From Cereibacter sphaeroides 2.4.1 (GTDB taxonomy: Bacteria > Pseudomonadota > Alphaproteobacteria > Rhodobacterales > Rhodobacteraceae): 32,000 bases of DNA. How positions within the stretch are numbered: the stretch's first letter is position 1; every line of letters starts with the position of its first letter. The translations under genes were made by a program, and so were the position numbers. Where the stretch lies: positions 660,001 to 692,000 of the forward strand of contig NC_007493.2 of NCBI RefSeq assembly GCF_000012905.2. Direction: 5' to 3'. Below are positions 9,788 through 32,000 of the stretch, piece after piece. The notes under the pieces are model-generated. The model saw only the letters and a program-made list of their open reading frames with translations, did no database searches and was not told the DNA's origin.

Positions 9788-10041
9788 CCCCGTCCCTCGA
9801 TGATGCTGAAGATTTCCTCGCCGCAGGCGATGGTCATGACCGCGAAGACATGGCGCAGCGCCGCGTCGTTCTCGCATTGCAGCCAGTTCCGGACCTGCCG
9901 CTCGCTCACGCCGAGCACCGGCGCGGCCTTCGCCGCCAGATCCCGCTCCGAGGAGGCCGGGAAGGCCCGCCACAGAAGCCCCGCGAACCTTTTTCGGCTC
10001 GCTCGGGCATGAACGTCACTTTGGGCAAGATTTTTCCGCAT
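9784..10041 (-). CDS. Small HTH-type regulatory protein (85 aa) in a cII-like position
   Basis: ATG at 10041 with GGAG 5 nt upstream. HTH-like segment AAPVLGVSERQVRNWLQ. It is the second gene of the rightward (lytic) operon. Confidence 0.55.
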   Translation of the reverse strand: MRKNLAQSDVHARASRKRFAGLLWRAFPASSERDLAAKAAPVLGVSERQVRNWLQCENDAALRHVFAVMTIACGEEIFSIIEGRG

Positions 10042-10121
10042 GTTCACTCCATCTTCTCCCTTGGAGAGGGTTTTCGATGACGAAGCGATTTCACGACCGG
10101 AGAGGGGGGCGGCGTAGAGCA

Positions 10122-10361
10122 TTACGCCGCCCCTCTAACTTCGCTGGACCGGTCGTGGACGGCCAGCATCCATTCTGCGGTCGCAAACGTCAGGCCTCGA
10201 GCGGCGGCAGCTTTCACGACTGCGGCTTGCCAGTCAGCAGGAACACGTCCTGCCCTCGCCCACTTGTGGACTGCCTCCACATTCGCGCCGACTTCAGCGG
10301 CGAAGGCCCGGCGCGTCGGCCAGCAAGCGATCAGCTTTTCGATCAGGTTCTCGGTCTGCAT
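10122..10361 (-). CDS. Cro/YdaS-like HTH regulator
   Basis: MQTENLIEKL...RRAFAAEVGANVEAVHKWARAGRVPADW matches the YdaS/Cro-type HTH pattern. It is divergent from the XRE repressor. The ORF track starts at TTG 10379; ATG 10361 is preferred. Confidence 0.7.
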   Translation of the reverse strand: MQTENLIEKLIACWPTRRAFAAEVGANVEAVHKWARAGRVPADWQAAVVKAAAARGLTFATAEWMLAVHDRSSEVRGAA

Positions 10362-10369
10362 GCCGCATA

Positions 10370-10390
10370 TTCTGGACAAAACATCCAGAA
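10370..10390. promoter_or_regulatory. Operator-like palindrome in the divergent repressor/Cro control region
   Basis: TTCTGGA (10370..10376), a 7-nt spacer, then TCCAGAA (10384..10390). It lies between the Cro-like start (10361) and the repressor start (10398 or 10413). Confidence 0.5.
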
Positions 10391-10397
10391 AGACAAG

Positions 10398-10748
10398 ATG
10401 GAAGAAACTTCAATGGGCAAACTTTCCATTTGCCGTCAAAATGTGCCCATGAAATCAATGCCTAGCAGGCTCCCCAAGATTGATCAGGCTGGCGTGGCGC
10501 GTCGGCTGGAGGCCCTAAGAGACGCACTTGGTCTCGATAAGGGCGAATTCGCACAATCGTTCGGCCTCGATCCTTCGAGCTACTCCAAGGTGTTGCAGGG
10601 CAAGAAGCCGCTTAAGTCCGAGTACGGCCATGCCATAGCCGAAGGCTGGGGCGTCAGCATGGACTTTATCTATCGGGGCGACATGTCCCGGATCGACGAG
10701 ACTTTACGAACTAAGGTCATGCAGAACCTCACCGCACCCATGCGATAG
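10398..10748 (+). CDS. XRE-family (CI-like) prophage repressor
   Basis: HTH_XRE pattern: RRLEALRDALGLDKGEFAQSFGLDPSSYSKVLQGKKPLKSEYGHAIAEGWGVSMDFIY. Lower GC than the flanks and divergent from the Cro-like gene. The start is uncertain, with in-frame ATGs at 10398, 10413, 10449 and 10458. Confidence 0.8.
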   Translation: MEETSMGKLSICRQNVPMKSMPSRLPKIDQAGVARRLEALRDALGLDKGEFAQSFGLDPSSYSKVLQGKKPLKSEYGHAIAEGWGVSMDFIYRGDMSRIDETLRTKVMQNLTAPMR

Positions 10749-11193
10749 AGGCGATCAATCGACATTCCGGAAGCATCGGCAAGCGCGAACAGCAACCGGT
10801 CTCCTGCATCGAGTCTCATCCCTACCCCTCTCGTTCACATGCGGTTCTAGGCAAGCTATGGCCATCACAAGGCCATTTCGGTCAGTGCCAGGTCGGGGAT
10901 CGTCGTATGTCGCAACGGCGAAAATCCGCGTCCTAGTGAAAATTCTCTTTTTTGCTCGCATCATACGATGACGGCAAGCGCAACCCTCGGCCACTTCTGA
11001 CGCCTCTGAGTTCTGCCACTCCACGGCCAAGGCTTCCCCACCTGCCGCTGCGGCCACTTCAGCTCATCAATGACCTCTCGGGAGCCTACGTAAGCGGCGC
11101 TTCTCAAGTAACTGGACGTTTCGTCCATCAATAAGTTGACGATGGAAGAAATGTCCAGCATGTTGAGACGTGCTTACTTGCATGGAGATCCTC

Positions 11194-15413: not shown

Positions 15414-15490
15414 TGGCGGGCCCAGAAGGACTCGAACCCTCAACCTGCCGATTAGAAGTCGGCTGCTCTATCCAGTTGAGCTATGAGCCC
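15414..15490 (-). tRNA. tRNA-Arg, anticodon UCU
   Basis: 77-nt cloverleaf folded by hand. Acceptor GGGCTCA/TGGGCCC, D arm GCTC/GAGC, anticodon stem GCCGA/TCGGC with loop CT-TCT-AA, T arm GAGGG-TTCGAGT-CCTTC, discriminator G, encoded CCA. Confidence 0.9.
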
Positions 15491-23843: not shown

Positions 23844-23918
23844 TGGAGCGGGCGATGAGATTCGAACTCACGACCCTTACCTTGGCAAGGTAATGCTCTA
23901 CCCCTGAGCTACGCCCGC
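23844..23918 (-). tRNA. tRNA-Gly, anticodon GCC
   Basis: 75-nt cloverleaf folded by hand. Acceptor GCGGGCG/CGCCCGC, D arm GCTC/GAGC, anticodon stem TTACC/GGTAA with loop TT-GCC-AA, T arm GTGAG-TTCGAAT-CTCAT, encoded CCA. Confidence 0.9.
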
Positions 23919-30390: not shown

Positions 30391-31536
30391 TCAGCGCCTC
30401 CGGGCCGCGCGTTCCGTCACATGGACCGCCAGCCCCGCGAGGAGCCCCCAGAAGGCCGCCCCGATCCCGGCCATGGCCACGCCCGAGCCGGTGACGGCCA
30501 GCGTCACCACCGCGGCGAACCTCTGCTCGGGATGGGCGAAGGCCGCCGTCAGCGCGCCAGTCAGCGGCCCGAGCAGCGCGAGCCCCACCAGCGCCGTGAC
30601 GAGGGCGGGCGGAAGGGCCGCGATGCAGGCGAGGATCGCCGGGCCGAAGAGGCCCAGCCCGACCCAGACCGCCGCATAGACGAGCCCCACGCTCCAGCGG
30701 CGGCTCCGGTCGGGATGAACCTCGTCGCCCAGACAGATCGCGGCGGTGATGGCCGCCATCGACACGGTATGCGCGCCGAAGGGCGCCGTCAGCGCCGAGA
30801 GCCCGCCCGTCACCGTCAGCGCGCTGCGCACCGGGGGCTCGTATCCGGCGGCCCGCAGGACGGCGAAGCCCGGCAGGTTCTGCGAGGCCATCGTGACCAG
30901 ATAGAGCGGCAGGCCCAGTCCGATCAGCACCGTCGGATCGAAGGCCGGCGGGATGAAGGTCAGGGTGGGGAACGCCAGCGGCAGCTCCGGCATCGCGGCC
31001 TCGCCTGCGAAGGCCAGCGCGCTGCCCCCGGCCAGTGCCGCCAGCACGGCCAGCGCAGGGTTCCAGAGCCGGACGAGGGCGAAGACCGCGATGGCGGGCA
31101 GGACGAGGAGCGGCAGGGCCTCGGCCGCTCCGGCGAGCTTCAGGCAGAAGGGCAGGAGCACGCCGGCCAGCATCCCGCCCGCGATCCCGTCGGGGATCAG
31201 GGCCACGGCCCGGCCGAGCGGCTTCAGCGCGCCGGTCAGAGCGATGAGCAGCCCCGCCAGCAGGAAGGCGCCCACGGCCTCGGGCATCGTGATCCCTTCG
31301 GTGGCCGCCACCAGCGCGGCCCCCGGCGTCGACCAGGCGAGGATCACCGGCACCCGGCTCCGCCAGCTCAGGAAGGCGCTGCCCACCGCCTTGCCGAGGC
31401 AGATCGCCAGCACCCAGCTTGCCGTCTGCGCCTCCGTGGCCCCCAGCGCGGCGGCCGCCGCCAGCACGAGGGCGATGGTCGAGCCGTAGCCCACAAGAGC
31501 GGCCACCAGCGCCGCCGAAAGCAGGGAAAGACGCAT
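30391..31536 (-). CDS. benE: BenE-family benzoate/H+ symporter-like transporter
   Basis: 381 aa, polytopic. The N-terminal region (ALVGYGSTIALVLAAA...LAWSTPGAAL) resembles BenE-family proteins by eye. Confidence 0.6.
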   Translation of the reverse strand: MRLSLLSAALVAALVGYGSTIALVLAAAAALGATEAQTASWVLAICLGKAVGSAFLSWRSRVPVILAWSTPGAALVAATEGITMPEAVGAFLLAGLLIALTGALKPLGRAVALIPDGIAGGMLAGVLLPFCLKLAGAAEALPLLVLPAIAVFALVRLWNPALAVLAALAGGSALAFAGEAAMPELPLAFPTLTFIPPAFDPTVLIGLGLPLYLVTMASQNLPGFAVLRAAGYEPPVRSALTVTGGLSALTAPFGAHTVSMAAITAAICLGDEVHPDRSRRWSVGLVYAAVWVGLGLFGPAILACIAALPPALVTALVGLALLGPLTGALTAAFAHPEQRFAAVVTLAVTGSGVAMAGIGAAFWGLLAGLAVHVTERAARRR

Positions 31537-31623
31537 GATACCCTCCGCCAGACCGGGCCGACTATGCCCGCGGACGGGATGGGCGCAAGGGGAAGTCCCT
31601 CATCGGCCGCATGAATCCGGCCA

Positions 31624-31665
31624 GGGAAATGAAAACGGCGGCACCCTGGAGAAGGTGCCGCCGTT
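31624..31665 (-). terminator. Rho-independent terminator closing the sRNA array
   Basis: On the minus strand: AACGGCGGCACC, loop uucuccag, GGUGCCGCCGUU (12-bp stem; arms at 31634..31645 and 31654..31665), followed by UUCAUUU. Confidence 0.8.
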
Positions 31666-31704
31666 CGATCTGGGCCGGTGAGGGAACGCCGGTCCGAAAG
31701 GGGG

Positions 31705-31774
31705 GCGGCGGCTCCAGGGAGGAGGAGGGAGCCGCCGCTTGGTCATCGGCACCGCGGGAGGAGGTGCAGTGCCG
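31705..31774 (-). ncRNA. CcsR/'cuckoo'-family sRNA unit (terminator-proximal copy); two hairpins with CCUCCUCCC-type loops
   Basis: On the minus-strand RNA, hairpin 1 is CGGCACUGC-ACCUCCUCCC-GCGGUGCCG (31747..31774) and hairpin 2 is GCGGCGGCUCC-CUCCUCCUCCCU-GGAGCCGCCGC (31705..31738). The U.G pair in hairpin 1 exists only on the minus strand. Ends are approximate. Confidence 0.7.
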
Positions 31775-31818
31775 AAGTCCGGTGGGAGGGGGCGCGCGGC
31801 CCGATCCCGGAAGGGGAG

Positions 31819-31888
31819 GCGGCGGCTCCAGGGAGGAGGAGGGAGCCGCCGCTTGGTCATCGGCACCGCGGGAGGAGGTGCAGTGCCG
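31819..31888 (-). ncRNA. CcsR/'cuckoo'-family sRNA unit (second copy)
   Basis: Same two hairpins, shifted by exactly +114 nt (31861..31888 and 31819..31852). Confidence 0.7.
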
Positions 31889-31932
31889 AAGTCCGGTGGG
31901 AGGGGGCACGCGGCCCGATCCCGGAAGGGGAG

Positions 31933-32000
31933 GCGGCGGCTCCAGGGAGGAGGAGGGAGCCGCCGCTTGGTCATCGGCACCGCGGGAGGAGGTGCAGTGC
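31933..32000 (-). ncRNA. CcsR/'cuckoo'-family sRNA unit (third copy, cut by the window end)
   Basis: Hairpin 2 lies at 31933..31966. Hairpin 1 begins at 31975 and is cut 2 nt short at 32000. Confidence 0.65.

Follow-up and report, generated by a model that had tools for sequence, protein, structure and literature searches.

The final stretch of the 32,000-nucleotide DNA analyzed here (the window) is almost certainly the 3' portion of the ccaF1-CcsR operon, in Cereibacter sphaeroides 2.4.1 or a near-identical strain. Positions 31694-32000 form a tandem repeat with a period of 114 nt, 2.7 copies, 98% matches, and no indels (Tandem Repeats Finder), each unit of which folds on the minus strand into two hairpins. 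Every testable defining feature of the cuckoo/CcsR RNAs and of the cluster CIN1 was found in the region except the gathering score of the Rfam family RF02791. The locus is reportedly also described in Berghoff 2009 and Billenkamp 2015. The feature is already known, and biologically nothing is added here to the published work, in which the locus, its promoter class, processing, protein partner, target, and phylogenetic spread have all been described (Reinkensmeier & Giegerich 2015 and Grützner 2021; PMC8034643, PMC4615179).

The ccaF1-benE locus

The array runs off the right edge of the window, and sequence beyond position 32000 was read from L001, a 3.84-Mb public contig containing the exact BenE. 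Over 10,090 nt this contig and the window were 99.99% identical. L001 carries a 100-N gap within the array (GCA_009767555.1; L001 9723-9821), and the promoter, ccaF1, and the first repeat units were read there, outside the window. The downstream neighbor of the array, which is not in the RNA operon, is the following:

30391..31536, minus strand: benE, benzoate/H+ symporter family (PF03594, E 2.9e-100)

Approximately 700 nt upstream of benE and on the same strand, L001 contains a 71-aa DUF1127 open reading frame (PF06568, E 2e-13), the stop codon of which is one nucleotide away from repeat unit 1. An earlier note on this DNA, made from the sequence alone, had predicted that the array and a lead ORF extend past position 32000, and both the additional units and this ORF, on the same strand, bear that prediction out. 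BenE is identical to ABA78247.1 and the DUF1127 protein to ABA78248.1, which are consecutive entries of the record for C. sphaeroides ATCC 17023 (= 2.4.1). CcsR1 to CcsR4 were defined in this same strain, R. sphaeroides 2.4.1 (PMC8034643, PMC4615179). A benzoate transporter gene (OG18) is the known other flank of the Rhodobacteraceae cuckoo cluster, CIN1 (PMC4615179), and benE, which lies on the same strand as the array, matches that flank. The published RNase E contexts of CcsR1 to CcsR4 are GUUUCC, CUCUUC, ACUUC, and ACUUC, respectively (PMC8034643). At the sequence level, these four motifs were found in the same order at the 5' ends of L001 units 1 to 4, and ACUUC also precedes the two complete units of the window (units B and A below), at 31892-31888 and 31778-31774. 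The exact BenE and CcaF1 proteins and the matching RNase E contexts thus lead us to place the end of the window within the ccaF1(RSP_6037)-CcsR operon. When the window array was compared with the known system, CcsR1-4 (RSs0680a-d; cuckoo HP2 variant, CIN1), the two proved to be the same locus: the agreement extends to BenE, CcaF1, the CCUCCUCCC-loop modules, the RNase E contexts, the terminator, and the benE flank, and nothing essential differs. Of the array, only the final 2.7 units fall within the window, and each of them belongs to the CcsR3/4 type.

Upstream of ccaF1, the motif ATTGTGCA-N16-CCCATGTT (L001 8974-9003) is conserved in 11 relatives. We take it, judging the consensus from general knowledge, to resemble a sigma-32/RpoH-type promoter. 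The sequence GCAGCA recurs between its -35 and -10 elements. Just upstream of this motif (L001 8944-8958) lies a palindrome, TGCTGCATGGCAGCA, which is nearly invariant in 11 Rhodobacteraceae relatives and which in C. sphaeroides has a form with one mismatch, CGCCGCATGGCAGCA; this palindrome may be a regulator binding site.

Other parts of the contig and of the window gave separate observations. Upstream of mraZ, approximately 900 nt of L001 (6846-7747, outside the window) have no called gene. The long dcw 5' leader of R. sphaeroides carries the sRNA UpsM (PMC5089854), and the gap is consistent with being the dcw leader with UpsM. Within the window, positions 10001-11000 have a GC content of 0.568, compared to approximately 0.68 elsewhere, and include an ORF for an XRE-type helix-turn-helix protein (10077-10748, plus strand; HTH_31, E 5.5e-6) whose neighboring ORFs are without a Pfam match. 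Horizontal transfer may have brought in this small segment.

Folding of the repeat units and the terminator

The earlier note had described an exact 114-bp period with at least three units. The period of 114 was recovered, but it is near-exact rather than exact: self-comparison at a lag of 114 revealed a single mismatch, 31794 versus 31908, across 31704-31886. The window contains two whole units and a third that is truncated by its edge. The features of the array are given below in the direction of minus-strand transcription, with scores for the CcsR1 family of Rfam (RF02791) and for R1, a covariance model described in the next section.

31926..32000, minus strand: unit C, CcsR3/4-type, 5' end lost at the window edge (R1 90.6 bits, E 7e-17, truncated 5'; RF02791 43.7 bits, E 2.1e-9)
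About 32003-31974, minus strand: unit C hairpin 1, 5' end outside the window, loop at 31993-31984
31966-31933, minus strand: unit C hairpin 2, loop CUCCUCCUCCCU at 31955-31944
31897..31925, minus strand: C-rich spacer separating units C and B, CCCCCUCCC; site of the sole lag-114 mismatch within the array
31812..31896, minus strand: unit B, CcsR3/4-type, complete, with its ACUUC (R1 111.7 bits; RF02791 47.3 bits, E 1.7e-10)
31889-31860, minus strand: unit B hairpin 1, loop ACCUCCUCCC at 31879-31870
31852-31819, minus strand: unit B hairpin 2, loop at 31841-31830
31783..31811, minus strand: spacer between units B and A
31698..31782, minus strand: unit A, CcsR3/4-type, the final full unit of the array, with its ACUUC (R1 111.7 bits; RF02791 46.7 bits, E 2.7e-10)
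31775-31746, minus strand: unit A hairpin 1, loop at 31765-31756
31738-31705, minus strand: unit A hairpin 2, loop at 31727-31716
31672..31695, minus strand: tail hairpin predicted by folding, located 3' of unit A and 5' of the terminator, with a CCGG stem and the loop CGUUCCCUCA
31627..31666, minus strand: predicted Rho-independent terminator of the ccaF1-CcsR operon (RNAfold, -27.5 kcal/mol)

The minus strand of 31620-32000 folded with a free energy of -204.9 kcal/mol (z = -11.4), and 0 of 100 dinucleotide shuffles folded as well. Two GC-rich hairpins per unit had been proposed for this strand, and folding recovered both of them in all three window units: hairpin 1 with a stem of 10 bp and the loop ACCUCCUCCC, and hairpin 2 with a stem of 11 bp and the loop CUCCUCCUCCCU. 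The feature of the cuckoo HP2 variant, one anti-Shine-Dalgarno-like CCUCCUCCC per hairpin loop, is therefore present in each of these units. The proposal that hairpin 1 needs a U.G pair also held, since the plus strand has a C.A mismatch at this position; the stem is continuous on the minus strand (-17.2 kcal/mol) and has an internal mismatch on the plus strand (-15.2 kcal/mol). Hairpin 2 is strand symmetric and equally stable on either strand, and the plus strand as a whole likewise folds well (z = -6.8).

An intrinsic terminator on the minus strand had been said to close the array, which agrees with the folding results. Its core is a GC-rich stem of 12 bp (31663..31636) with the loop CUCC, followed by UUUUCAUUU at 31635-31627, and the stem grows to 15 bp once A-U and G.U extensions are counted (31666..31633). 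A simple consensus promoter/terminator scan found nothing and missed this terminator because the predicted stem takes up the first Us. The element lies upstream of benE at a distance of approximately 90 nt, and the arrays of all C. sphaeroides strain loci end with the same element. Published work describes a terminator that closes the operon at its 3' end (PMC8034643). Positions 31628-31697 of the minus strand (L001 9840-9909), which span the tail hairpin and the terminator, gave weak matches to both R1 (29.5 bits, E ~1e-3) and RF02791 (19 bits, E 0.042), and the terminator stem, ACGGCGGCACC/GGUGCCGCCGU, comes close to the hairpin 2 consensus with its loop shortened to UUCUCCAG. From these sequence likenesses, the tail hairpin and terminator together resemble a decayed cuckoo module. 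A U-tract follows the last intact unit itself in several relatives.

Family assignment, functional strand, and coding capacity

A search with the CcsR covariance model of Rfam, which the earlier note had suggested as a check, matched all three window units on the minus strand only. The RF02791 scores were 47.3, 46.7, and 43.7 bits, with E values from 1.7e-10 to 2.1e-9 in a permissive scan of 31400-32000. All of these scores miss the RF02791 gathering score of 65.3, because RF02791 was built on CcsR1 orthologs, and no match was obtained in the region at gathering thresholds. Across the whole window, the gathering-level Rfam matches were two tRNAs only:

15414-15490, minus strand: tRNA-Arg (TCT)
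23844-23918, minus strand: tRNA-Gly (GCC)

Unit 1 of the array, as read in L001, scored 106.2 bits on RF02791, which is above gathering. Since the window units fall below this threshold and unit 1 above it, we filed the window units as CcsR3/4-type paralogs and not as CcsR1. The architecture had been attributed to CcsR1-4; the CcsR family stands, and the assignment within it can be narrowed to the CcsR3/4 type for the units in the window. As judged from their sequences, these units are CcsR3/4-type paralogs of the cuckoo family that have the architecture and loop motifs in common with RF02791 and differ from CcsR1 in their stems and linker (44-47 bits).

Relationships to other RNA families were also assessed. 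The alpha-r14/NfeR1 RNAs (SmrC14) of Rhizobiales, including Sinorhizobium (RF02344, ar14), belong to the same cuckoo family, with CCUCCUCCC loops, an association with DUF1127, and stress induction, and the window region matched RF02344 weakly (35.4 bits, E 6e-5). They have three to four hairpins per RNA, are often located 5' of a DUF1127 gene or transcribed from a promoter of their own, and, unlike CcsR, are without a long tandem array (PMC8034643, PMC4615179). The 6C RNA of Actinobacteria (RF01066) and sX13 of Xanthomonas (RF02232) have an analogous design, in which neighboring hairpins carry C-rich loops for pairing with G-rich motifs in mRNAs; these are single genes of unrelated phyla, with runs-of-C loops and without a DUF1127 context. 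Their matches to the window region were marginal (28.1 bits, E 0.12, for 6C and 19.1 bits, E 0.27, for sX13), and membership in either family was rejected in favor of analogy only.

For the comparative analysis, the covariance model R1 (85 positions, 24 pairs) was seeded with four CcsR3-type units and extended by search. The seed was limited to these four because a MAFFT alignment of six units misaligned hairpin 1 in units 1 and 2. R1 was searched against the window, L001, and 80 loci listed around CcaF1 homologs (GTDB species representatives), and the C. sphaeroides strain loci were gathered separately by means of BenE variants. Among the matches listed, at least 116 with E<=1e-3 came from approximately 40 Rhodobacteraceae loci; all were on the DUF1127 strand, and the first typically began straight after the DUF1127 stop codon. 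An additional 37 matches in C. sphaeroides strains were again all on the DUF1127 strand, and on neither strand did R1 match the rest of the 32-kb window or the locus flanks. In the 116-unit alignment of the matches listed, which was fitted to R1, standard pairs occupied 94.6% of the cells, compared to 38-57% when the partners were slid by 1-3 columns, and double (both-side) changes occurred at all 24 of the 24 pairs. The covariation score was 0.600 versus 0.05-0.12 in the slid controls, and 0 of 500 shuffles reached any of the observed measures. RNAalifold was run as well, on the same alignment of 116 sequences, and recovered both hairpins unaided with compensatory changes at 17 of 17 pairs. 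The loop motif CCUCCUCCC (also given as CCTCCTCCC) occurs twice in 96 of the 116 units among the matches listed, and G.U pairs, which are A.C on the opposite strand, are frequent in the homologous units.

These data bear on whether the array could instead be a structural DNA repeat (REP/BIME-like, a recombination substrate) or encode a plus-strand RNA, with no minus-strand RNA function. The significant fold of the plus strand, the equal stability of hairpin 2 on both strands, and a copy number that varies from strain to strain, as in unstable repeats, would all fit such an element. We nevertheless consider it very improbable, given that all 153 R1 matches among those listed lie on the DUF1127 strand and adjoin a DUF1127 gene, that neither the rest of the window nor the locus flanks contain another, and that the G.U pairs so common in these stems would be A.C on the other strand. 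The orientation of the terminator fits the minus strand, the fold of that strand has the more extreme z score (-11.4 versus -6.8), and the sRNAs are visible in published Northern and dRNA-seq data (PMC4615179, PMC8034643).

Whether the repeat codes for protein was also examined. Five of the six frames are stop free over 31694-32000, three on the plus strand and two on the minus strand. The earlier note had listed two open minus frames and one open plus frame; its minus count was correct and its plus count too low. With so many frames open and a unit of exactly 38 codons, the repeat might be taken to specify repeat proteins, either proline-rich ones in the minus-strand ORFs 31562..31909 and 31600..31980 or ones rich in Gly and Arg on the plus strand. 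We attach next to no probability to this reading. Neither ORF product had a Pfam match, and the gene caller placed no gene there in L001 or in the strain loci. Among the matches listed in relatives, the spacing between units fell into classes 0, 1, and 2 modulo 3 in 20, 15, and 28 of 63 cases, so that a multiple of 3 (20/63) was at chance level, no frame was conserved, and the spacing showed no codon periodicity. Conserved frame-breaking indels were observed, and the compensatory stem changes and invariant loops are an RNA signature. Furthermore, the BenE and CcaF1 accessions are consecutive in the 2.4.1 record, and several frames being open together is typical of GC-rich noncoding repeats. 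Taken together, the strand, covariation, spacing, and Pfam results exclude a protein-coding repeat and establish which strand is functional. The ORFs across the units are artefacts that arise from the GC richness of the repeat and its length of 38 codons, in agreement with the claim that 31562..31909 and 31600..31980 are not genes. The checks run here from among those suggested in the earlier note all favored its interpretation, with minor corrections to the period, the frame count, and the unit type. A mechanical ORF track is expected to yield several overlapping phantom repeat proteins at 31694-32000.

For annotation, the consequences are practical. A pass at the Rfam gathering threshold misses every unit in the window, because RF02791 models CcsR1 only. 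Mechanical ORF tracks give spurious repeat proteins, and in draft assemblies the array is broken or collapsed. Both the missed units and the spurious ORF calls would be cured by a cuckoo model that covers the whole family.

The operon model and the copy number of CcsR3/4-type units

In the proposed mechanism, transcription would begin upstream of the 71-aa ccaF1 (RSP_6037), approximately 0.7-1 kb past position 32000, from a promoter of the sigma-32 type that RpoHI/RpoHII recognize, as published. The transcript would proceed on the minus strand through the tandem two-hairpin cuckoo modules and, as predicted from the sequence, end at the terminator at 31666-31627. According to the published scheme, RNase E would then cut the precursor at the A/U-containing ACUUC between modules to give sRNAs of approximately 75-85 nt, and CcaF1 would bind the CcsR RNAs and modulate their maturation and stability. 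The two CCUCCUCCC anti-Shine-Dalgarno loops of each sRNA would pair with G-rich, SD-like stretches of mRNAs with the involvement of Hfq, which has been published for flhR and which we infer for other targets; pairing of the CCUCCUCCC loop with such stretches is the accepted model. The basis for these steps lies in previous work. Expression of ccaF1-CcsR depends on RpoHI/RpoHII and is induced by heat and (photo)oxidative stress (PMC8034643, PMC4615179), the CcsR sRNAs come from the ccaF1 3' UTR through RNase E processing (PMC8034643), CcaF1 is an RNA-binding protein that affects CcsR maturation and stability (PMC8034643), and Hfq binds the CcsR sRNAs, for which flhR mRNA is a target (PMC8034643, PMC4615179).

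The array could also act mainly in cis or as a sponge, as a long and structured 3' UTR whose role would be to titrate CcaF1 or Hfq or to steer the fate of ccaF1 mRNA. This is compatible with the main model and not exclusive of trans-acting sRNAs. Variable copy number (7 versus 9 units in complete genomes) fits a dosage or titration role, and from general knowledge the architecture can be likened to that of multi-site sponges such as CsrB. CcaF1 has been found to bind the CcsR RNAs and alter their levels, and the longer precursors appear to be translated ccaF1 mRNA (PMC8034643). Against this stand the published processed single sRNAs, their binding to Hfq, and their direct mRNA target flhR, as well as the published overexpression in which CcsR alone, supplied in trans without ccaF1, largely reproduced the phenotypes. 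As the main function of the array, a cis or sponge role is thus quite unlikely; nothing in the results computed here discriminates between the sponge and trans-acting roles.

The array of L001 consists of units 1 to 4, the 100-N gap, and then the last unit. Window unit C and unit 4 of L001 (L001 9635-9721) show 100% identity, and four positions differ between unit C and L001 unit 3 with its flank. Because unit C corresponds to L001 unit 4 and not to unit 3, the genome would contain at least five, and probably at least six, units. In complete genomes, R1 counted 9 units in ATCC 17029 (CP000577.1) and 7 in CP033434.1, a closely related genome whose BenE is a close variant. The draft genomes (L082, L084) gave counts of 3 or 5. 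Short-read contigs have their first position within the array or immediately past it, and the Logan contigs L087 and L088 begin, at position 1, with the last unit. With 3 or 5 units in drafts versus 7 or 9 in complete genomes, copy numbers from draft assemblies are unreliable. Table 1 of PMC4615179 gives 9 units for ATCC 17029, 7 for 2.4.1, and 7 for KD131, in clusters of "up to 9 copies." Our R1 counts agree with that table, and copy-number variability is thus already published. The functional papers describe four sRNAs, with a joint "CcsR3/CcsR4" probe and a 680-nt precursor (PMC8034643).

Throughout the copies and strains compared, the spacers vary and the hairpin cores are identical. In a locus with five CcsR3/4-type copies (L086 2300-2868), the 85-nt cores are identical except that at one pair the first copy has G.U in place of G-C (GCCGTCGCC), and several positions of the spacers, which are approximately 30 nt long, differ among the copies (in the window, the spacers are at 31783-31811 and 31897-31925). 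Identical cores and drifting spacers suggest either that the copies evolve in concert or that the cores are under strong purifying selection. The raw unit counts are already in Table 1 of PMC4615179, and the new part would be only the reading in terms of dosage and concerted evolution. On the present evidence we slightly favor the view that the count of four sRNAs is too low and that an array of the 2.4.1 type comprises CcsR1, CcsR2, and five CcsR3/4-type copies that evolve in concert. The dosage of CcsR3/4 would in that case be a rapidly evolving trait at the level of strains, and one that short-read assemblies would systematically collapse or break.
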